This document shows positions 17,471 to 33,520 of a stretch of DNA of 64,000 nt, piece after piece. The translations under genes and the position numbers were made by a program. The stretch's first letter is position 1, and each line of letters opens with the position of its first letter. Under the pieces are notes generated by a model that ran no database searches, was not told the origin of the DNA, and worked only from the letters and a program-made list of their open reading frames with translations. Where the stretch lies: the NCBI RefSeq assembly GCF_037042905.1, contig NC_087250.1:19346001-19410000 (forward strand), given 5' to 3'. The DNA is from Lytechinus pictus (taxonomy: Eukaryota).

Positions 17471-17942
17471 CTGTGTGTACAAACAGAACAAATTGTCACA
17501 AAAAGTTCACATATTTGAACAGATAATTCATCAATGAAACAAGTTATCTACACGATTTTTTTCTGAGCGGCTTGAACAACGTTGATCAAATAAACAAGGT
17601 ACTGGAGGAAATGCTATTGTCTGTGCAGCCTGAATGACTTTGATCAAAAATTCAATTTACATTTTAGTGTCTCTCCAAGTTACCATCTTTTAGGCCATTC
17701 AAGTTGAGATTATAACTTTTAAAAACATTTTTTTTGTTATATTGAAATTTGTATAATTTTGTTCAAACTTTAGTCTAGACCTCCTCTGATGTTTTTTCAT
17801 GATTTCTTTTGGGGTTGGAGTCTGATTAGTTTGGAGAATTTTCTTTAAAGAAAAAAGGTTTGCTCTGTGAAATACTTCGCAGGTTTAATACCAGGAGGAT
17901 AGAATCATCCTTCAACAAATTAAAAAAATTGAATGTACGTAC

Positions 17943-18078
17943 CAAGATTTATCATCATCTCATAGTTCTCTTTGACATTCTTGATACATGTTCTCTCATA
18001 AACGCTGATCTTTGCCCATTCCTTGGCTGTGAAGTAAACCTGGACATCTGAATATTGATCCATCTCTGGAAGGGACAT
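17943..18078 (-). CDS. ZNF gene copy A, first coding exon: PRDM9/Meisetz-like ancestral KRAB (aKRAB) domain
   Basis: Acceptor at 18115 (atatcacag|), start atcaccATG at 18078, MSLPEMDQYSDVQVYFTAKEWAKISVYERTCIKNVKENYEMMINL G|gtacgt. Matches by eye the human PRDM9 KRAB [38 protein letters not shown]. Confidence 0.85.
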
Positions 18079-18451
18079 GGTGATTAACTTCCAACCCAAC
18101 GGCACAAAGACTTTCCTGTGATATGCATCAAATAGTAGAAATAAAATTTGCATTTAAAAGTAGAAATAATTGTGAAAGTTTAATTAAAGCTAAATGAACG
18201 TAGTTGCAGTAAAACACTGATTTTGTGAGAAAGTCTGTAAAACCAAGGTAAAGTATTATATCATCGTGGATCTAGATCTGGTACAGTTACATAAACTGAA
18301 CTTTGTGAAATCATAATATCTAGCTAAAAACGATCACACTGAAGATCGCCAACACAGATAGGCACACGTGGGACAGTGTATTATTATTGCTGGAATAAAG
18401 ACCCGACGGAAGTGACCGAATCCGCGCTTATTTTGCCTATTTCTCAGCAAT

Positions 18452-18901
18452 AGACCAGTTCGTAGTTACCTCATGGACAATTTTGGTCAAATGACCTTTC
18501 ATTTCTTTCATTATGATAGGCAGATTTCAAAGCAAGATATTACGTAAGCTTGCCTTATATAGCAGGATGAAGAAATTGAAAAGACTTGATGACTAGAATA
18601 GCTCACCAATGAACACTTTATGAAGGTATTTGTTGCATTCCTACTTTAAATGCATATCATAGCATGTTGCACAATGTACTTGGCAAACTGTGAAATACCA
18701 GCCGTTCGTGGACGCATTGTTTTTTTTTTTTTTATGTAAATGAAACCACAATTCAAAAGAATATATGAATAATCAAGACATCAAAGTTGGTGCTTATCTC
18801 ATTAGATTTTAAACCACCATGTCACTTTAGTACAAATGACCTTCCTCTGATCATGCGTAGAATCTTTTGATCATGCGCAGAAAGGAACTACGAACTGGCT
18901 T
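18452..18901. mobile_element. MITE with ~17-bp TIR in an AT site (superfamily uncertain)
   Basis: at|agaccagttcgtagtt ... aactacgaactggctt|at. Confidence 0.65.
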
Positions 18902-19760
18902 ATTACACAATTTCCTCCAGAATCCTTTGGCACATATTTTTTATTCATGAATACAAACAGACACTTTGGTGATCATTATACTGTGCGTCCCAAAAAAAAT
19001 ATACAGTTTTAAAATGGCTGCCAAATAAAAAATGTAGCACTTTGGGGGAAGAGACTTATAGATATGGAAAGCCAATAAAGTCAACTTTCAAATGACACCA
19101 AAAAGTTGGAAAACTATTCATGCTTGAGCGAGCACTGCCCACTGAAACAAAGGGTATGAAAATTAGGGTGGGCCGGAATAGATTCCAATTTCTTTCAGGT
19201 TTTTTTTTGTTTGGTACTTGCAAAGTTCAGGGTTATTTGGTGAATTAAAGATCAGTTGTGATCAGTTTGTTGTTTGTGAAAATTTAATGCGTTATTAAAT
19301 TGAAATTTAATGCATGAGTGATCATGAATAGCAATTTTTAGTGAAGCATTTTGTCATTATTATGTGGATCTCAACAATGTTCATGACAGTCAGAAGAGGG
19401 GGTGATATGACTTAGGTAGGTGAAGTATAATACGTTGATGGGATAAAGGTCAACAGAACATTTAGCACCCCCTCTCTCATCTCACCCCCCCCCCCCACGC
19501 TTCTCTCCTCCTGAGAGACTATGAACTCGGGTAGGCTTGGCAGGAATTAGCCTTAAAGTTTTTTTTGAGTGGTTAGTCCTTTGGAACTTGCTAAGCTAAA
19601 TTAATGAGTGAGATAAGTTTTGGTTTCTTAGGCAAATTTCATGAGTTACTAAATTGAAATGTAATGCATGAGTGAACAGGAATTGTAATTTTAGTGTAGC
19701 ATATTCATCTTGTGGACCTCAGAAATGTGATCATGAGAGTCAGAGTAATGTGATAGTACC

Positions 19761-22700
19761 TATGAGGCGCCGAATGTACCAATATTATATAGAACAATTA
19801 TTTGTTATATAATCATTATTTATTAAATAATAACTATTATTTATATATAATTTACATTTTATTTGTAAATAACTACTATTATATAAAATATCATTTCTAA
19901 TTATTTATATATAATTCCAAGTAATACTTCATTATTTGTAAATAATAATAGTTCGACATTCCATTATTTATAAATAATGATTATTTGTTTTTCATTATCT
20001 ATAAATAATGATTATTTGTTTTTCATTATTTATAAATAATGATTATTTGTTTTTCATTATTTACAAATAATGATTATTTGTTTTTCATTATTTATAAATA
20101 ATGATTATTTGTTTTTCATTATTTATAAATAATGATTATTTGTTTTTCATTATTTACAAATAATGATTATTTGTTTTTCATTATTTATAAATAATGATTA
20201 TTTGTTTTTCATTATTTACAAATAATGATTATTTGTTTTTCATTATTTATAAATAATGATTATTTGTTTTTCATTATTTATAAATAATTTGTTGAGTTTT
20301 CCATTATTTATAAATAATGATTATTTGTTAAATAATGAAAACGTCTACTTCATTATTTATAAATAATTTTTTCGAGTGCACCATTATTCTCATTATTTAT
20401 AAATAATCATTATTTAATGTTCGAGTTTTCCATTATTTATAAATAAAGATTATTTGTTAAATAATGAAATATCTACTTCATTATTTATAAATAATAATTT
20501 TGTTTCAATATCCCATTAATCATTATTTATAAACAATTTTTACAGTTTGCCATTATATACAAATAATCATTATTTATATACAAATAACCATTATTTATTA
20601 AATAATGCCATTATTTATTAAATAATGCCATTATTTATTAAATAATGGAAAACTCGCTATAACATGCAAATGTGGGACCGCCCATGATATGAATATTCAT
20701 GATGCGATTTCCTTTTTCTTGATTTTTCTTCACAAATTTTTGTCCATTTCCTCTTCATAATGACATTTCTTGAAGCAATTTTCTAGGGATATGGTCTGAT
20801 TGTAATATTCTTCATTTTCTATATAACTTCGTCTTCGTAGAAATATCAAAAAGTGTAATTTTATACGATTTTTCCTACAGTTCACAATCCCCATAGGCGC
20901 GCGTGTACGGTAGGGACAACCGGTGAATCGACGGAGTGCTCTTCATCGAAATACTACGTTGGTTGGTCCCCGGAAGTGGCGGGCGGAATTTAGCCCGAAT
21001 CCTCGATGGAAGTCGATCAAGTGCATATGAGCTGAGAGAGTGAAATATCAGTGTACTTGTACAGGCCCTTCTACTTTTTATAAATATTTCTTGTTGCTTT
21101 TTTTGTTTAGTTAATTTTTCCTGGTGTAGAGATAAGTTTCAGTTCTAATAATGCACTTCAAATACATTTTGGAGTGTCTGTTTGAGGCGTTTGGGGCGAT
21201 TTCACCCTGGCCCCAAAATGCTCGCAACGACAATACGGGGGCATGATGACCCCTAAATTTTTAAAAACTTATTTTTCTATTGAAAATTATCACAAAATTC
21301 ACCAAAAGTGTGCACGAAAGCCTTCGTATTTCACTTTTAAAACTCCAAAAAGTGCCCAAATGACAAGCTTGGTCGCTTCGCTGTGTCGCTTTCAACTTGA
21401 AAACGTTTACGCGTCTGCTTCCCCCCCCCCTCCTCCGAAAGAAATTATGTATACGGCCATGCTCTAAAGAGCCTGGCACATTGATTTATGTATACTTCAT
21501 TTTCATTATTTTTATCTCATTATCATCATGGCCTTACGCAGAATTTTTTCCGGGGGGGGGGTGGGGGGAGCAGGACGCGCGTAAACTTTCTCATAAAAAT
21601 CTTGAAAAAGCGAAGCGACCAAGCTTGTCATTTGAGCTTGGTCGCGTCGCTGTCTCGCTTTCAAGATTTTTTTGAGAAACTTTACGCGCGTCCTAGCTGC
21701 TCCCCCCCCCCCCCGGTAAAAATTCTGTGTAAGGCCATGATGATAATGTGATAAAAATAATGAAAATGAAAAGTACATATAAATCAATGTGCCATATGCT
21801 CTTTTGAGCATGGCCGTTCACAGAATTTCTTTCGGGGGGTGGGGGCAGACGCGCGTAAACGTTCTCAAGTTGAAAGCGAGACAGCGAAGCGACCAAGCTT
21901 GTCATTTGGGCTTGGTCCCGTGGCTGTCTCGCTTTCAAGATTTTTTTGAGAAAGTTTACGCGCGTCATGCTCCGGCCCCGGCCCCCCTGGAAAAAATTCT
22001 GCATAAGGCCATGTTGATAATGAGATAAAAATAATGAAAATGAAAGTATACATAAATCAATGTGCCAGGCTCTTTAGAGCATGGCCGTATACAGAATTTC
22101 TTTCGGAGGAGGGGGGGGGGGGGAAGCAGACGCGTAAACGTTCTCAAGTTGAAAGCGACACAGCGAAGCGACCAAGCTTGTCATTTGGGCACTTTTTGGA
22201 GTTTTAAAAGTGAAATACGAAGGCTTTCGTGCACACTTTTGGTGAATTTTGAGATAATTTTCAATAGAAAAATAAGTTTTTAAAAATTTAGGGGTCATCA
22301 TGCCCCCGTATTGTCGTTGCGAGCATTTTGGGGCCAGGGTGAAATCGCCCCAAACGCCTCAAACAGACACTCCAAAATGTATTTGAAGTGCATTATTAGA
22401 ACTGAAACTTATCTCTACACCAGGAAAAATTAACTTAACAAAAAAAGCAACAAGAAATATTTATAAAAAGTAGAAGGGCCTGTACAAGTACACTGATATT
22501 TCACTCTCTCAGCTCATATGCACTTGATCGACTTCCATCGAGGATTCGGGCTAAATTCCGCCCGCCACTTCCGGGGACCAACCAACGTAGTATTTCGATG
22601 AAGAGCACTCCGTCGATTCACCGGTTGTCCCTACCGTACACGCGCGCCTATGGGGATTGTGAACTGTAGGAAAAATCGTATAAAATTACACTTTTTGATA

Positions 22701-23843
22701 TTTCTACGAAGACGAAGTTATATAGAAAATGAAGAATATTACAATCAGACCATATCCCTAGAAAATTGCTTCAAGAAATGTCATTATGAAGAGGAAATGG
22801 ACAAAAATTTGTGAAGAAAAATCACGAAAAAGGAAATCGCATCATGAATATTCATATCATGGGCGGTCCCACATTTGCATGTTATAGCGAGTTTTCCATT
22901 ATTTAATAAATAATGGCATTATTTAATAAATAATGGCATTATTTAATAAATAATGGCATTATTTAATAAATAATGGCATTATTTAATAAATAATGGCATT
23001 ATTTAATAAATAATGGTTATTTGTATATAAATAATGATTATTTGTATATAATGGCAAACTGTAAAAATTGTTTATAAATAATGATTAATGGGATATTGAA
23101 ACAAAATTATTATTTATAAATAATGAAGTAGATATTTCATTATTTAACAAATAATCTTTATTTATAAATAATGGAAAACTCGAACATTAAATAATGATTA
23201 TTTATAAATAATGAGAATAATGGTGCACTCGAAAAAATTATTTATAAATAATGAAGTAGACGTTTTCATTATTTAACAAATAATCATTATTTATAAATAA
23301 TGGAAAACTCAACAAATTATTTATAAATAATGAAAAACAAATAATCATTATTTGTAAATAATGAAAAACAAATAATCATTATTTATAAATAATGAAAAAC
23401 AAATAATCATTATTTATAAATAATCAAAAACAAATAATCATTATTTATAAATAATGAAAAACAAATAATCATTATTTGTAAATAATGAAAAACAAATTAT
23501 CATTATTTATAAATAATGACAAACAAATAATCATTATTTATAAATAATGAAAAACAAATAATCATTATTTGTAAATAATGAAAAACAAATAATCATTATT
23601 TATAAATAATGAAAAACAAATAATCATTATTTATAAATAATGGAATGTCGAACTATTATTATTTACAAATAATGAAGTATTACTTGGAATTATATATAAA
23701 TAATTAGAAATGATATTTTATATAATAGTAGTTATTTACAAATAAAATGTAAATTATATATAAATAATAGTTATTATTTAATAAATAATGATTATATAAC
23801 AAATAATTGTTCTATATAATATTGGTACATTCGGCGCCTCATA
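19761..23843. mobile_element. 4.1-kb foldback (near-perfect palindrome) transposon, TAT...ATA ends, 6-bp TSD AGTACC (IS3EU-like signature)
   Basis: agtacc|tatgaggcgccgaatgtacc ... ggtacattcggcgcctcata|agtacc; arms ~19761-21607 and ~21933-23843; no protein-like ORF. Confidence 0.9.
19963..20290. repeat. 31-bp AT-rich minisatellite in the foldback arm (mirror copy ~23315-23645)
   Basis: ~10 units of ttatttataaataatgattatttgtttttca, each junction forming the palindrome cattatttataaataatg. Confidence 0.9.
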
Positions 23844-24723
23844 AGTACCTGGGGCATTCCTCTTTTTGTCCTTTTACAAATTAAAAGTCATATGTACCCT
23901 CCCCTCTCCACCTCCGTTTCCCAGCCCCCCTCTCCCTCTCTGTCTCACTTTGTGGATTGTAGCCTATTCAAAATTTAACTGCCACTAAAATGACTGGTGG
24001 CTGATGGTCAGTTTTTCTATTGAATGATTACCACGAAATTTAATGATTATGATGATTAATGAAATAATTTATTGAAAAAACTGAATGTTTGATCACATTG
24101 CACATTGAATGAGTCGATTTACTGATAAATTGCTGATTAAATGATTGATAGGAAAATTCAAAATTAATCATTAAATCAACATTCTGCTCTGGACTTCACG
24201 CGTACATGACAATAGCAATCAGTCTCTCAACAGGAGGGGAGGGCGAGAAAGAGGGAGGGGGCGGGGCTGAATGTTTTGTTGACCCTTATTCCATCAACCT
24301 ACTTCTCCCACTTAAGTCCTTTCTCACCCCCTATTCTCCCGACTCCCATGAACACATTGCTGAGATCCACATGATAAAGTTGAAATGCTACCCAAAAAGA
24401 GATCCAAATGATAAACTTGAAATGCTGCCCAAAAAGTGTAATTTGTGTTCACTCATGCATTAAAGTTCAATTTAATAATTTTAATTTATAAAATTTGCTT
24501 AAGCAACCAAAACTGGTTACGGTTGATCATTAATTTATCACAACGCCCTTAACTTAACATGTTCGAAAGGATTTGCCTCTCAAAAACTGACATAAATTGG
24601 AAGGCTAATTCCAGCCCACCCCAATTTTCATACCCTTTGTTTCAGTGGGCAGTGCTCGCTTAAGCATGAATAATTTTCCAACTTTTTGGTGTCATTTGAA
24701 ATTTGACTTTATTGGCTTTCCAT

Positions 24724-26189
24724 GGGGGGTATTCTGAAAAGTCTCTTAAGTCTCCACTTAAGTTTCCTCATAAGTTACCCATTTAATGGAGCGCTAATGT
24801 ACCTCCAAATTCGTATTCTGAAAACTCTATTAGCGCTCAATTAACTCCCTTTAGGCCACGCCCCTACTGAGCCGAATTAGCCAATCAAATGCGCTCTTAC
24901 AACGTAAAATTTTCTCCCAGCGCGTAGTGTCTCTTCACTTTGCTGGCTTGCAGCGCAGCGCCCGGCTGCTGCAGGTGGACTGCACCACGATATTGATACA
25001 AAATTTTTTTGCTGAAAAATAATGCTAAAAGCATTTGCATCGGAGATTAACAGGAGGGTCATTATGTTGTTGAAGCTAACTGTTGTCTTTTCCCTTTCTC
25101 TCATTTATTGTACCTTTGTGATTTTCTCTTTTTTTTCGAACGCGTTCTGATTTCACATCCACCTATTGTAGCTTTCTTTGTTTTGTTTTTTTTACAATAT
25201 TTTATTTGCCTCTGTCTCGGGGTCATGATGGGGGGGGGGTTCTTCTTTAACTTAATTCCTACTTATTTTAAAAATAACATACTTTTCATTTTTATGAGAA
25301 ATCTTCTTCAACAAAATGCTGATTTGAATAAAATGATTTTAAAAATCAAACTAGCATAATCGTTAAAAAAGCCGAAATTTTATTGAAATTGGATGTACAA
25401 ATGTTATGATATTTAAGATTTTATAGGTGGGGAAAACGATGGCATCCCTCACTATTTTTTTTCTTTTGTACCAAAGGGGTCAATGCTTATTTTTTCATTG
25501 TCGGAAACAAGGTTTGATTCCCCCCTGAACATTGCTGCATCTATTGTTACTTGGCAATCTCATTATTGTCAAAATAATGTGCAAAAATACTTTATGATGC
25601 TTATAATAAAAGAAAATATAGAAAAATAATAGTCATATTTCCCCTATAAGTACACAATTTCTGTTTTCTTTTTCCTTCTTTTCTAATTTCTTTATTACCA
25701 AATATAGCCCCCATTCCTTATTTTACTTGTATAAATTGTGAATATTTTTTGAACAAATTTAAGCCTGAAACATATTGTTTAAAAGTCCGCCAAGTTTGGA
25801 CACCCATACCACCTTCTTTCCCTTTATTCCCTTTTTATACCTTTCTCCTTTATTCTCTTGCTTCCTCCTAAATTTGGTCGCAGTATTAAACCGATTTGAT
25901 GATATTTATACGAAATGAAAGCCACATTTAGCAAGAGAAAATGAGACTTAATGGACCTCTTATCACCATTATCTTTCCCCACTGGAAAGTCCGCTAATTG
26001 AGCGCTAAGAGACTTTTCAGAATACCAAAAGTCTCGTAACTACTCAATTAAGTCTTCGCGCGGTCATAACGCGTACTGTTGCAAGTGCGCGCAACGCAAC
26101 CCTGCCAAATAAGGAAAGGGGCACTTAAGTGACTTTTCAGAATACCAAAATGCTAATTGAGTGCTAATTGAGCTTTCAGAATACCGCCC
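24724..26189. mobile_element. PIF/Harbinger-like non-autonomous element, 3-bp TSD CAT
   Basis: cat|ggggggtattctgaaa ... tttcagaataccgccc|cat; removing it restores the host TIR. Confidence 0.85.
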
Positions 26190-26339
26190 CATATCTATAA
26201 GTCTTTTCCCCCAAAGTGCTACATTTTTTATTTGGCAGCCAATTCAAAAGTGTATAGTTTTTTGGGACGCACTGTATTAAATTCTGTAAAAAAGTCATTT
26301 TGAGATCGTTCCCACAACTGGAATTTTTTTAAATAAAAT

Positions 26340-26880
26340 ATTATAAATTGTGAAAGTTTGCACTAAATAGTCGAAATAATTGTGAATGTTTCTATCAAAA
26401 AATAGAAATTGTGAAAGTTTGCATCGGAGAGTAGAAATAAGTGTGAAAATTCGCACCAAATACATTAGAAAAAATTATGAAAGTCTGCATCAAAAAGTAG
26501 AAATAATTGTGAAATATGAAATATAGCATCAATAGTAGAAATAATTGTGAAAAATTGCATCAAATAGAGTTTGTCAAATTTTGCATCAAGAAATACTCAT
26601 AAAAGTTTGCATCAAAGAGTACAAATGATTAAAAAATTTTGAAAGTTTGAATCTAATACATAGCAGAAATAATTGTGAAAGTTTGCATCAAATCTAAATA
26701 TAAGAAGACTTAATGTATTAAATTGAGATGACCTTGGCCTAAAAAAATATAGATTGTCAAATTTTGCATCAACAAATACTTGTGAAAGTTTGCATCAAAG
26801 AGTACAAATAATTCAAAAATTGTGAAAGTTTGCATCTGATACACTGTAGAAGAAATAATTGTGAAAGTTTGCATCAAGAA
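26340..26880. repeat. Degenerate ~32-bp tandem repeat (agtagaaataattgtgaaagtttgcatcaa), continuous with 18120-18181 across the nest
   Basis: Repeated gtgaaagtttgcatc motifs on both sides of the 18187-26330 insertion. Confidence 0.7.
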
Positions 26881-27486
26881 GACTTAATGGATTCAATTGA
26901 GATGGTCTTGGCCTAAGAAAAAAATCAGATTTTTGTTTCAAAATAAATTATGGATTTTCAATTTTTCTTTCTCTCTACCTCTTTGAAAGACTTTGATGCT
27001 CGAAGTAGGTTAAGCGTACAATCGTGTATGATCAAAGAGGATAGGAAATACAGGATCTCTCAGTCTCAACATCAAGAATCTCTCCATTTCAATCTGTTTT
27101 TGTTGAACATATATAAAGTACATTACATGTAGGGTCGGAAACTTTCCAGAAATTTTAGTGTAATTTATCTTTCATTTTGTCAAGGGTTAAGAAACTATCT
27201 TTCATTTACTAATTTAAATACATGTACATGTAATAACATTATTTTTTAAATTGGTTTTGTATTGTGAATATTTTCGTGAACAATTTTAAGCCTGATAAAT
27301 ATTTTTGAAATGTCCGCAAAGTTTGGACACCCCAAACTGAAGAGTGGAAGCACCGTACCGGTGTGGCTCGCGGGCCGCTGGGCTCCGACCGAGCAGACCA
27401 CCACAGTACCGTACCGGTACACTGAATTGTCTCTGCAGCATTCATGCCGTACCGTACCAGTCACACGTACCGGTACTGCGAGGTTT

Positions 27487-30400
27487 ACCTCAAGCGAAGT
27501 TCGTGCAGGCTCCACTCCACTTCACTACCTCTACACTACTCTCCACCTACCCAAACTTCGTGACCGTGAACTCCTTAGGATACTCCTAGAGGCAAAGGCA
27601 AAATACCAGAAATATTCTAAGAGTTTGGGAAAATATTCCACAAATTATTTTCCCAAACTCTTAGAATATTTCTGGTATTTTCTGAGCCATCCAATATAAT
27701 ATAAATATTTATGCTGTTTGACCTGCGACCAGCCGTGAATAATACGTGTGACTGTGAGGATTTAGATACTGGCCCAATAACCAATTTTGAGGATAACCGG
27801 AGGATGGACACAGAGTGAAATACGGGTGTAGAGTAAGAAATTAAGCTATTTTTCTTTCTCGTTATATTTTTTTCTATAATTGTTACAATAAATAACTTTT
27901 TTATCCCACCTTTGCCTCTATGAGTATCCGAACGAGTTCACGGTCCCGAAGTTCGGGTTGGTGGAGTGTATAGACTGTGGGATGGACAGGGAAAATGTAG
28001 TCTCTATAGTTTTTCATTTCTGTGGGGCGGCAAATGCAACCATGGTTCTTAGACATGATAATATGTAAAATATTATGTGTGAATACTTGCAACATGTTGC
28101 CATCGCTACATTCTGCTCCTGAACTCAAAATTAAAACAATAATATGCAAAATCATACCATTGATTCGACTGGAAATTCCGACATTCACCTCGTGTGTTAA
28201 GGATTTCCGCGAACGAGCGCAAGCGTGTACAATGCATGTAACCCCGTTCGCGTTAATTTTTTTATTCGCTGTACATGCTATACGTTATATACAAATTCTA
28301 TGATGGCGGATAAGATGTCGTCATCTTCGTCGTGTTTTGACAGCGAAAATGACGATTTACCACCAGCAAATATATGCTACATGCACGTCTTACCCAAGGA
28401 GAGAGGGCCAGTAAATTTCTTTCAAATAAAGAGCTAGAAAAAATTCAATCCTTTGCTGCATTCGTTGAATTAGACTACCTGGGACTTCGGAATAAAAATA
28501 GCTATTCGTGCAGCAGCAGAGAAGTTTGCGATTGACTTGCAACCCGGCCCCTGGAGCAGTGGCGCAAGCTGTCCCCCCTGGCAGAGTTCACCGGGAAATG
28601 AAAAAAAAGGGGGAGAAAGAAAGGGAAAGGAAAAAAAAGAGGAAGGGGGGAAAGGGGAAAGAAAACTAAGAAAAAACATAAAAAGTGAAAACTGGAAAAG
28701 GAAGGAAAGAAGAACAGTTAGATTGTCATGATGAGGTGATTTTTTTAAAAATCTCGCTCGCTTCGCTCGCTCGGGACTTATATAAAGCTACTTCTTGCCA
28801 CACGCGCCATACTGGGCCCCCTCGAGCATAGAGCTTCGCCGATGGTCGCGCATGCAAAATCATAACAAAAATCCTGTTCACCTTGACGTACAGACCAAGA
28901 AAAAAATAGAGAACAGGGTGAAATATATTATCTTCTTTAACATTATGTCAAAATCTATCACAAAATTGGATTTTTGTAATAAAAATGTCAAAATTTTTGC
29001 TCACTCGCATTCTTTTTTTTACCCGATACACCATATCGCCCCTCAAAATGTTGCCTCATGACGCAATTGCTTGTTCCATGATTGCCTGTTCCACCCCCCC
29101 CCCCCCCCTTTTGAGAAGCAAAAACAAAACTATTGTAATGTAAAAATGCCATTAAAACAGAGGTGTGCCCCCTCTTTTGAAATTTAAGACTTTTTTTTGC
29201 TTTTTTTCATGTACGAAATATACTTAATTTATGGTTGAAAACATTTTTTTTTTTTTTTTTGCTTGTCATTTTTTCGGGTACGAAATATCCTTCAGTTGTG
29301 GTTGAAAACCTCTTTTTTTTTTGGGGGGGGGGCTTGTCAAAATTTTCCTCTGAAAAATTGGCCCCCCTCTTTTGGAAAATCCTGGATCTGCCCCTGATAA
29401 GACCAGGAAACGTTATAGACGTCACGTGTTACATGCATTAGCGTACCTATGGGGGTGTGGGGGGTGGGCAGAGTGCCCCCCCTGATGAGTCACAACTCAT
29501 GCAAGGGACGTATGCCTGCCCCCCTGACGAGTCACAACTGATCTCTGCCGAGCCACAAGTGGCCTGCTCCTTGAACTTGAAGTCCTTTTTTTTTTTTGCT
29601 TGTCAAATTTATTTCTGGTACGAAATCCTTTATTTGTGGTGAAAAACTATTTTTTTGGGGGGGGGGCTTGTCAAATTTTTTGGCGGACGAATTTGCCCCC
29701 CCTTTGAAAAATCCTATGTACGCCACATCTTGCCCAGAGCCAGGTCAAACATCGTTCGTATCACCAGCATTCCAGCAATCAAGCGATCGAAGGTGAAAAA
29801 GATACAAAGGATGATTTTGAAGATGGTGATGTTTGTGACAGCGATCTTTGTCCATGCCAAAAATGTTTCACTTTGTGCTCTTGCATTTCATTCTCTGCAA
29901 AAGTGAAGCAGTGCAAACTTTTATGATTTTTGTATCGGGCCTCTTCCAATGACGAGTGGATACCATGCACGACCATGGGGTCTCGAAAAGCACCCTAAAC
30001 ACTTATTTTCTATATTCTGAAAATGCACCCCTTAACAAGTATTGGCGTGTGAAATCCTACCCTTAACAAGTATTGGAAACAAAACTTCAAAAGATTTTCT
30101 TGGCAAGTATTCCCTAAAATGAACCCCTAAACAAGTACAGTGATATTTTATTGTTATGTCACTGGTCCGTCGGTCGTCGGTTTTACCTTTACACATCATT
30201 TGGTTTAGTATGGCACCACCTTCCACACCTCGTGCAAATCGGACTCTAAACATGTAGTGTTGGGGCAAAAAGGACATCCTTTATTAAACATTTTAATTTT
30301 GTTTTATCACCCCCGCAAATTTGACCCTAAACACGTAGCTTTCCTAGCGAAATAGATACCCTTTTTCATTATTTTCCTGTTTTTGACACACTTATCACGT

Positions 30401-30549
30401 TACGTACGTAACGTGCCCTATCTTGAAAAAGACATCCTTTTTACATGTTTTTTTGGTCGCGCATGGTATCCACTCGTCAATGTAAGTAGCCCCCCTGGGT
30501 GTAGCGGTAGTGAAGTGGAGTAGAGCCTGCACGAACTTCGCTCGAGGTA
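27487..30549. mobile_element. Long-TIR MITE whose right TIR is split by later insertions; a further right-TIR copy ends at ~33305
   Basis: tacctcaagcgaagttcgtgcaggctccact... (27487-27600) is complemented by ~27909-27970 and 30499-30549; similar sequence at ~33236-33305. Confidence 0.65.
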
Positions 30550-33387
30550 ACCAGGGGCCTGTTGCATGAAATGGTCTTTGGTAGAACCGCTCTACGTAAG
30601 ACCGAGATATCGCTCAACTATTTCACAAAGCCGATCATTGGGCTAAACGAAGAATGGTCCTTGGAAAGACACCTCAAGACATGTCCTACGTAGTCATGAT
30701 CTTCTTTGGACACCGCCCGCCACCGTCGGCATTGAGAGAAAATGCGTTTATGGCAAGCCACACTGATATATCACCTTTAAACATTTTGGGAGGTCCTTCG
30801 ATTGCACTCAGATGCATTTTATCTTGGATGGGGCTTGGATGGCGATCATGGCGCCAAGTTACGTGGCTGGCATCAAATTAAAAACAGAGGTCATTTTTCT
30901 CCGAGGTAATCTATAGGCCCGAATAATTTTTTTTTTAAATATGCTTTCTGTTATTTCCTCACATCATTTTCTCCCTCTTTCCCCACCCCTTTTCCATTTT
31001 TTTTAAACCAAACTTGAAATATCGAAATGGGCGGCAACCTCTCAGCTCTGACCCCCATGCTTTATCATTAGATGAATATTATGAAAAAATATGTATGGTA
31101 AAGTAAACATGTGTTTATTACGTTCAGCAAAAAAAAAATGAAATAAAATAAAACATGATACAAAACTGAGATGTTACTAAGCATGCTAAATCATTTCTCT
31201 ATCTGTTTATATATATATTTAATTTATTTTCTTTATCATGACTATTTTTTTGCTGAGATTTATGTCAATCAATGAGAATTGTTGAATTGGTGTTAAGGTG
31301 ATGAATGAAAAAAAAATCTGCCAGTAACAAAATAACTAATTGAATTAAAAATATTAGGCCTATACATGTAGCTTATGAATCCATCACAATCATTACAAAT
31401 AAAGTTAAGTTCATTGTACCTATGATGATAGACAGGGTTGTGGAAAGTCCATACGAAAAGGCTCATCGTAGTATGTCTCGACTCCTTAAAGGACAAGTCC
31501 ACCCCAACAAAGAGCTAATTTGAATAGAAAGAGAAAAATCAAACAAGCATGCACTGATAATTTCATCAAAATCGGATGTAAAATAAAAAAGTTATAACAT
31601 TTTAAAGTTTCGCCTAATTTCTCAAAAGAGTTATATGCACATTCTGTTCGGTATGCAAATGAGGGGACAGATGACATCACCCACTCACTATTTCTTTTGT
31701 ATTTTATTATATAAAATATGAAATATTTTGATTTTCTCGTCATTGTCATGTGAAACAAAGTTTCATTCCTCCGTGAACACATGAAATTCCATTATTTTAA
31801 CATTTTGTGGTTCAAGCAAGGGGGTCCTAATTGTCAAATTGGTAAAAATTGAAATATTGTATAATTTAAACAATAAAAAACAAAAGAAATAGTGAGTGAG
31901 TGACATCATCAACTCTCATTTGCATATCACCGAGTTGAGCATAGAACTGTTTTGTGAAAAATAAGCGAAACTTTAAAATGTCATAACTTTCTTATTTTAC
32001 ATCCGATTTTTATGAAGTTTTCAGCATTATTCATGTTTGATATTTCTCTATTTATTTAAATCGACTTTTTTCTGGGGTGGACTTGACCTTTAACTTTGAA
32101 ATGTTGAGCATATATTTTTTTTTTAAATTATCAAAGCTTATGTTATATTAACTTCCATAAAGTTATCAACTTTAAACGTTTATGATCATTGTGATTTTAG
32201 CATTGTTTCTGTAAAAAGTAATTTCCCCCGTTCAATTGATTTCACATATTTTTCTATGTTTTATTATTGTAGTGCTACTATACCACCTTGACAAGTTTGC
32301 AGCAAGTTTCATATTTTGATTGTCCTCGGTTACTGAAACTTAATTTTCATGCAAATGTATGTTTATACTCTAAACACTCACATTTGTATTTCTTGCGTTA
32401 TATCTGATGAATGAAATAAATAAATTCGATTTTTCACACGCAGCCTCTCATATTTTCCTTTTTAAATTATAGTCTCATACAATCAGACACGTTGATTATG
32501 TTTACACCATTCAAACCCCATTTTTACATCAACAAATAACATTTAAAGCATAATTTGCAAAATTATCACTTTAAGTTTAGATAAGTATTCTATAAAAAAT
32601 CAGAATATTGAAATAATACAATGCCGAAATTAATTAGTTACTTTAATTTTTATTTTCGGACAAGGGTCTCTTTCGTTGGAATATCAATGAAAGGTGTCCT
32701 TAAAAAAAAAGGGCACCTTGTCCTTGAAAAGAGGAAATAATGAAAATTTCGATTTTATCCAGGTAGGCCTATGTTTGTGAAACTTCAATTTTTGTTCTCC
32801 TTTTTTTTAGTCTTACCTCAGTCAAACAAGTGATCTCCATACATCATTTCTACTATCGGTAACAAACAAATTATTTGAGCTCCATTAATTGAAATAAATG
32901 ATTTTTTGATAAGTCGTCATTTCGAAATAAATCAATGGTTCAGCCTTCAGTTCAGGTGAAGATGAAGACTAAATATTTTTCTGATAATATCGAAATAATA
33001 TGGATATCAAACGATGTCGCGGACTTGGAAGACAAGAATGCCTTCGTGAAACGGAAAGCGCCGATTTGTCGCCAATCTTCCTATCTCAGAAGAATGGTCC
33101 TAGGAGTAGGACTAGGAGTAGGAGTAGGACGTTCCTATACGTATCGCTCCTCTCGCCGTGCAACAGGCCCCGGCCATAGTCCTACCCGTAGATTCCCCAC
33201 ACTCACAGGCAGGATGGTTGGGGGTGTAGTGGGCCAGTGTAGCGGTAGTGAAGTGCAGTGGAGCCTGCACGAACTTCGCTCGATCTCGAGCCTCGCCTCG
33301 AGGTAGGTACACAGATTCACGTCTTACTCTTATTTACTAGATCTATATACTGCAGATCTGTAACTAAATCATAGTGAAAAAACTCAC

Positions 33388-33520
33388 CAGACTCTGTCTC
33401 AAAAAGATTCAAGTCAGCTGTGCCTATGCCTTTTGGCTGCGAAATTTATAAGGTCTCCATTTCTGTTGACTAAATAAGCGCGGCTAGCCGGCCGCGCTCG
33501 TGTCGACTGTCGTCGATGTC
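33388..33520 (-). promoter_or_regulatory. Candidate promoter / non-coding first exon of ZNF gene copy A
   Basis: CpG-rich patch (33478-33525) followed on the minus strand by the strong donor CTG|GTGAGT at 33388; lies just before copy-B homology begins (~34.0-34.3 kb). Confidence 0.4.

Follow-up and report, generated by a model that had tools for sequence, protein, structure and literature searches.

Which kind of transposase moves an element made of two long inverted arms around a non-coding centre, and what does such an element bring into the gene that harbours it? Both questions are raised by a 4083-bp foldback element in a 64,000-nucleotide stretch of the genome of the sea urchin Lytechinus pictus (NCBI RefSeq assembly GCF_037042905.1, contig NC_087250.1, positions 19,346,001 to 19,410,000 of the forward strand), which is called here the window and is numbered from its first letter. 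The element is a real foldback transposon, as indicated by the finding of the same boundary at a second insertion site. It is non-autonomous and was most likely moved in trans by a transposase of the IS3EU/GingerRoot type (integrase-like DDE), and its most likely location is an intron of a gene for a KRAB zinc-finger protein.

A preliminary description of the window, made from its letters alone, had delimited a 4.1-kb foldback at 19761-23843, with TAT...ATA ends, a 6-bp flanking duplication and near-identical arms of about 1.9 kb that differ in repeat counts and contain an outer palindromic minisatellite domain and an inner complex domain. All of this was recovered, the duplicated letters being AGTACC. 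The structural features of foldback transposons are all present: long terminal inverted repeats (TIRs), an outer tandem-repeat domain followed by an inner domain, a repeat number that varies between arms, and a non-coding centre. The arms (19761-21632, 1.87 kb, and 21907-23843, 1.94 kb) are identical in 1837 of 1867 aligned columns (98.4%). Over the 198 bp at the tip the arms do not differ at all. Further inwards, the array of 31-bp units has 10 mismatches, the following 357 bp have none (but contain a 60-bp indel), the inner domain of 709 bp has three and the innermost module of 277 bp has 17. The indel corresponds to three 20-bp units, so that this unit is present three times in the left arm and six times in the right one; the preliminary count was right for the left arm but gave five for the right. 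The 31-bp array contains 13.0 copies in either arm, and its T/C variant units are out of register between the two arms, which suggests that slippage has acted in each arm separately.

The outer domain, with a GC content of 14%, is composed of a single half-site, ATTATTT or its reverse AAATAAT. This half-site occurs 61 times in the 0.9 kb of the left outer domain, versus 0.95 times per kb outside the element, and the spacings of 20 and 31 bp are close to two and three helical turns. The inner domain is of a different nature, being non-repetitive; a CpG-rich core at 20880-21030 of its left copy contains words that we take to be ETS-like and GC-box-like, and this core may act as an inward promoter. 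Pfam was searched with nine open frames (70-126 residues) taken from this domain and the centre, and none of them reaches a cut-off. Three matches to microRNA precursors were obtained when the element was compared with Rfam, all of them far under the gathering scores and explained by the hairpins.

The centre consists of three modules of about 275 bp in series, U1 in forward orientation and then U2 and U3 in reverse, U2 being the additional unit that the preliminary description had seen as the source of nested palindromes. U2 is identical to U3 in 244 of 270 columns and to reversed U1 in 241 of 263, and U1 and U2 are each self-complementary at 76-79%. The sequences that flank the block of modules are inverted, not direct, repeats of each other, and the modules therefore seem to belong to the palindrome itself rather than to have been inserted later. 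For the same reason, a separately inserted miniature inverted-repeat transposable element was rejected as their origin.

Independent evidence on the element comes from public sequencing runs. Part of the window is contained in 20 of the 24 listed runs, and half of it in none. Four public runs were compared with positions 17880-19925, about 6 in 100 of the RNA run X24 being covered; X24 carries an organism code different from that of run X1. A 258-letter contig of X1 is identical to positions 19761-19925 in 165 of 165 letters and carries in addition 29 letters of another flank, the match breaking exactly at 19761. The same end on a different flank means that the boundary holds and that the family is present at more than one place, as expected from mobility. 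Ends located further out, at 19756/23848, were rejected on the basis of this break. A variant form of the element end is found in at least 21 contigs of run X9, and both known flanks, those of the window and of X1, carry AGT at equal distance from the element end. The perfect duplication at the window copy, together with the identical end in X1, suggests that the element is young and has been recently active. Arm identity is no clock in this respect, because conversion can maintain it.

The foldback sits in the middle of another transposon, a Tc1-like non-autonomous host element that also contains a second insertion. The empty site of this host was seen directly: loose ends behind position 18980 continue as the window does from 26277 (167 X24 reads and one X1 contig). 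The host in turn interrupts a high-copy repeat, which occupies 18130-18980 and 26277-26950.

Two rival readings have to be considered. It is scarcely credible that the palindrome was created by folding back during assembly or library preparation, or that it is a local inverted duplication without any history of movement. Artefactual palindromes of great length are known from long reads (PMC12870357), and no long reads cross this one among the listed public runs. However, the arms show 30 differences besides the 60-bp indel, the centre of three modules is asymmetric, a direct repeat flanks the element, the host parts on either side are collinear, and the end reappears on the other flank in X1 and, in variant form, in the X9 contigs. 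The second reading concerns the target. The junctions fit either a 6-bp target site duplication (TSD) with TAT...ATA ends or a TA duplication with ends two bases further in. The latter would correspond to a foldback of the Tc1/mariner type, or another TA-targeting one, with AGTACC as a coincidence of the host; we consider it very unlikely. TA is indeed found at the junction of both known insertions, ITm elements duplicate TA (PMC10045372), the paralogous tracts of the host resemble a TA-only empty site over 5 to 8 bases, and internal repeats of the host align slightly better with that site (143 vs 139; 111 vs 105), a point that weighs against a 6-bp TSD. Nevertheless, a TA target demands that the 6-bp repeat arose by chance, for which the probability at two fixed flank places is about 4e-4 outright. 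Even when the host repeats that favour TA are credited, a rough likelihood ratio of 114 to 2440 supports the 6-bp reading. The AGT common to both flanks also suits a 6-bp site preference, weakly, as only two sites are involved.

With ends and TSD so placed, the element can be compared with the superfamilies known to produce 6-bp TSDs. IS3EU and GingerRoot elements belong to a single lineage; the termini of IS3EU are TA..TA, and its TSDs are usually of 6 bp (PMC10045372). The TIRs are 100-150 bp long in GingerRoot (PMC6839031), 43 bp in Styx/REP9, which also shows 6-bp TSDs (PMC8232023, PMC10853768), and over 30 bp, ending in TAYGG, in the IS3EU elements of rust fungi; fungal IS3EU elements carry opposed gene pairs (PMC12730594). 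The structure and function of IS3EU have been described as largely unexplored (PMC11934779). The TA..TA termini, the TIRs and the 6-bp repeat of the one full copy agree with the IS3EU/GingerRoot signature, and the rule that the preliminary description had applied to them is the one given in PMC10045372.

The tip provides a further point of comparison. A set of 27 fungal 5' ends, mostly from rust fungi and including no animal ends, was taken from Table S1 of PMC12730594 and counted by eye. Apart from TA, twelve positions have the same letter in 22 or more of these ends, and the element tip matches seven of them. The resemblance is modest, as 189 of the 8783 TA-starting 22-mers of the window reach this score (2.2%). 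The tip has CA at positions 20-21, as do 24 of the 27 fungal ends, its positions 16-22 are identical in IS3EU-1_TuIn, and its beginning fits TAYG but not the fifth base of TAYGG. This count replaced an earlier degenerate motif (found at both tips and two other places, with 1.53 expected by chance), which was dropped because it had been fitted to the tip post hoc.

On these grounds, the element is probably a non-autonomous foldback served in trans by an IS3EU/GingerRoot transposase. It is to be regarded as a likely user of an IS3EU-type enzyme and not as a proven member of the superfamily, the defining feature of which is its transposase. The link drawn in the preliminary description is partly supported: the ends and the 6-bp repeat of this copy fit, the tip adds a modest likeness, and membership itself is unproven. 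Several observations weigh against the assignment. The TSD is seen in one copy alone, the X1 copy showing one end only, and no read or contig crosses an empty site of the foldback among the loose ends and pieces inspected (24 of 1460 and 24 of 26453, respectively). The tip does not have the G that occupies position 5 in 27 of 27 fungal ends and misses four further conserved positions, and the fungal families, mostly of rust fungi, are not independent. The TIRs known from IS3EU/GingerRoot are short (over 30, 43 and 100-150 bp). Finally, termini flanking a transposase, the search for which had been proposed in the preliminary description, and with them a transposase-bearing relative, were not found when metagenomes, prokaryote genomes and viral contigs were scanned with the tip. 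These scans gave no matches in prokaryote genomes or viral contigs, and the module end gave none in viral contigs. A metagenome match to the tip (L001, 20-21 letters only) and two matches of the right flank in prokaryote contigs (20-23 letters) were judged to be due to chance, and a protein search with an open frame that spans the left junction, aimed at spurious gene calls over the empty site, yielded no candidate.

Other superfamilies could account for a 6-bp TSD. A foldback derivative of a hAT6-type element appears quite unlikely to us. Repeated subterminal binding sites are usual in hAT elements, but the hAT end consensus differs at the third base, and the likeness of the tip to IS3EU ends is somewhat above chance. 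That hAT6 elements produce 6-bp TSDs and are placed among animal hATs (PMC12730594) counts in favour of this origin and, at the same time, against the IS3EU assignment. A foldback of some other or unnamed superfamily with 6-bp TSDs (derived from a Polinton, a Ginger or a long terminal repeat (LTR) integrase, or unclassified) is also unlikely, although such an origin deserves some weight. The ends here are TA..TA, with a boundary fixed by the X1 contig, and Polinton ends differ. In LTR elements TG...CA is prevalent (PMC6839031), but TSDs of 6 bp do occur in some of them, as well as in Polintons and Ginger2 (PMC6839031, PMC10045372), and the foldback build arises in several superfamilies (PMC4079207, PMC3688188).

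The gene around the element is read from the minus strand, and its KRAB exon lies downstream of the intron that holds the foldback. The L. pictus protein XP_063957201.1 matches every coding exon of the gene at 100%. A further coding exon piece at 31.4 kb is provided by XP_063957186.1 and XP_063957189.1; however, the last exon of these two models is only 94.8% identical to that of the window, and either a mixture or a paralogue may be represented by them. The preliminary description had considered the case of a first exon at 33.4 kb. The donor at 33387 is the highest-scoring minus-strand donor within 18.15-42.5 kb; the RefSeq upstream exon is the one at 31.4 kb. The first residues of a paralogue map near 33150 with one substitution (equalled in 6 of 200 shuffles), the near match to the first codons of its upstream exon occupying 33135-33151 on the minus strand, with neither start codon nor donor. 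The upstream exon is absent from the loose ends inspected (24 of 1460; runs over 17880-19925). Taken together, the RefSeq exon and the top-scoring donor indicate, from sequence comparison, that the element most likely lies in a 5' intron of at least 13.3 kb, which puts the intronic position suggested in the preliminary description on firmer ground.

An element in this position leads to the prediction of an RNA hairpin of 1.8 kb in the pre-mRNA. The computed fold of the minus strand has 1825 arm-to-arm pairs and -3123 kcal/mol; the preliminary description had foreseen a double-stranded RNA hairpin of about 1.9 kb for the case of a first exon at 33.4 kb. Young repeats are the main targets of adenosine-to-inosine (A-to-I) editing in animals, 86% of the sites being in repeats in S. 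purpuratus (PMC9989829). Over the element tip, the RNA depth of X24 is low on both strands and drops to about 1 by 19881-19925, and the substitutions of X24 over the stretch stem from many repeat copies and are hence uninformative on editing. The features described are collected in Table 1.

Table 1. Positions in the window of the foldback element, its parts, the surrounding host transposon and the exons of the zinc-finger gene.
Feature	Position	Strand	Basis or remark
Whole foldback element, 4083 bp, TAT...ATA	19761-23843	.	Self-comparison; end repeated on other flank in an X1 contig
Left 6-bp direct repeat AGTACC, candidate TSD	19755-19760	.	Sequence; chance about 4e-4
Right 6-bp AGTACC copy	23844-23849	.	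Sequence
Left terminal segment: 20-bp tip of higher GC content followed by AT-rich DNA	19761-19958	+	Identical to right end
Left 31-bp repeat array, with one 20-bp palindrome per unit	19959-20290	+	Variant units out of step between arms
Left degenerate outer domain, closing with three 20-bp units; ATTATTT/AAATAAT half-sites also present	20291-20647	+	
Left inner non-repetitive domain, 38% GC; candidate inward promoter	20648-21356	+	No Pfam match at cut-off
Module U1, self-palindromic (76%), perfect 25-bp inverted ends	21357-21634	+	Self-comparison
Module U2, extra unpaired copy	21635-21908	-	90% to U3; 92% to U1 reversed
Module U3, mirror partner of U1	21909-22187	-	253/270 columns
Right inner domain, mirror of left	22188-22896	-	Arm comparison
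Right outer domain, made up of six 20-bp units, a degenerate part, the array of 31-bp units and the terminal segment	22897-23843	-	
Host: Tc1-like non-autonomous element, TA flanks	18981-26274	.	1736 bp after removing two nested insertions
Second insertion in the same host: GGG...CCC ends, CAT flanks	24724-26189	.	
KRAB-box exon of C2H2 zinc-finger gene	17942-18115	-	Pfam KRAB 21.8 bits, cut-off 20.4; RefSeq L. pictus proteins; strand-specific X24 RNA depth
Upstream coding exon piece of XP_063957186.1 and XP_063957189.1	31420-31466	-	16/16 residues over 31466-31419; AG|GT donor, in frame with KRAB exon
Candidate first exon of the preliminary description, extent uncertain, donor 33387	33388-33450	-	Top donor score

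Other observations were made in the neighbourhood. The second insertion of the host would also fit a CCAT flank if its right end were one base shorter, and its ends resemble those listed for a Harbinger element. In the high-copy repeat interrupted by the host, the reads show many internal deletions, for instance from 18449 to 18902. A segmental duplication comprises 5.4-17.9 kb and 42.5-57.9 kb, with two paralogous KRAB zinc-finger genes; those exons of the second gene that were compared are 100% identical to XP_063957204.1, and the window does not include the KRAB exon of this gene. Between 16280 and 17490 a short acidic exon is found three times in steps of about 500-600 bp, and the RefSeq isoforms use differing numbers of it. 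In the L. pictus protein P0008, a THAP domain is combined with a relative of the KRAB exon at 17942-18115. Three copies of a 50-bp motif (27485-27536, 30499-30550 and 33236-33283) bracket the region of the candidate 5' exons. Broken reverse-transcriptase frames, presumably of the Penelope type, are present on the minus strand at 231-2388. With respect to fungal IS3EU ends, the CA at positions 20-21, beyond TAYGG, may help to classify copies devoid of genes (PMC12730594).

A tentative mechanism can be drawn from these data. A transposase supplied in trans would engage the 20-bp tips and cut the target with a 6-bp stagger. The pairs of ATTATTT/AAATAAT half-sites, placed every 20 or 31 bp in the outer domain, could offer extra docking sites to this transposase or to a helper, by analogy with Galileo, whose arm repeats have been shown to hold binding sites (PMC3688188). 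The element might have originated when one end of a parent (tip, array and promoter-like inner domain) was copied in inverted orientation, or when the genes of a parent were deleted from between long arms; a parent end region with a promoter would be in keeping with the opposed gene pairs found in fungal IS3EU (PMC12730594). Through slippage, the arrays of the two arms would then change in size independently of each other, and the three-module centre may have come from mis-paired recombination or from template switching, both at the hairpin modules. Finally, read-through from the host gene would give the 1.8-kb intronic duplex, on which ADAR or small-RNA pathways could act.

The element is to be regarded as selfish DNA. 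A more comprehensive reading, possible but on balance doubtful, would be that IS3EU/GingerRoot elements spawn true foldbacks, that the phased ATTATTT/AAATAAT palindromes are a docking code of the IS3EU transposase or of a partner protein, that the inward promoter-like domains go back to two convergent genes of a parent, and that this copy adds the 1.8-kb duplex to the pre-mRNA of its KRAB zinc-finger gene, genes of this class possibly having a part of their own in policing transposons. If this were true, the arms would provide the first handle on IS3EU end recognition: no paper was found on end recognition by the IS3EU enzyme, and the arm palindromes are a concrete candidate for its binding motif. 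With an IS3EU foldback, IS3EU would join Mutator and P as a superfamily that has evolved long modular arms. Specialists would see in this an expected kind of convergence and hardly be surprised, and it is the end signatures of one copy that carry the link. The young intronic insertion is, in addition, a cheap test case for hyper-editing or silencing. A literature search that did not include Repbase Reports or the papers on TU found no description of an IS3EU foldback; the excerpt of PMC8268682 names both IS3EU and foldback, but unrelatedly, and the first 11 letters of the tip led to unrelated papers only.

Among known systems, the sea-urchin TU elements (Liebermann et al. 1983) and the present element are both sea-urchin foldbacks with an outer repeat domain and inner domains. 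The TSD of TU is of 8 bp, its outer repeats are of 15 bp and its arms measure about 0.84 kb, whereas the element has a 6-bp repeat, units of 20 and 31 bp and 1.9-kb arms. The resemblance pointed out in the preliminary description therefore concerns layout only, and membership in TU was rejected, given that the TSD and outer repeats of TU are not found here. The arms of the Drosophila FB elements use periods of 10, 20 and 31 bp, the last two as in the element. The animal lineage hAT6, whose 6-bp TSDs (PMC12730594) agree with the one full copy of the element, is not known to have a foldback form. The IS3EU/GingerRoot elements share with the element the TA..TA ends, the 6-bp TSD as seen in its one full copy, the presence of TIRs and, for fungal ends, a partial likeness of the first 22 bases; however, their TIRs are of 30-150 bp, while those of the element reach about 1.9 kb, with minisatellites and with neither a transposase nor a second gene, and all 27 fungal ends differ from the tip at position 5. 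Foldback architecture has been described in the lineages of Mutator and P, and repeated origins are assumed for it (PMC4079207, PMC3169594). Tetris (PMC4079207), Galileo (PMC3688188) and Tm1 (PMC3169594) have long modular TIRs like those of the element, with outer tandem repeats of variable number, an inner complex domain and a non-coding centre, but they are assigned to Mutator, with TSDs of 8-10 bp, or to P, whereas the element combines the same architecture with a 6-bp TSD and TA..TA ends.

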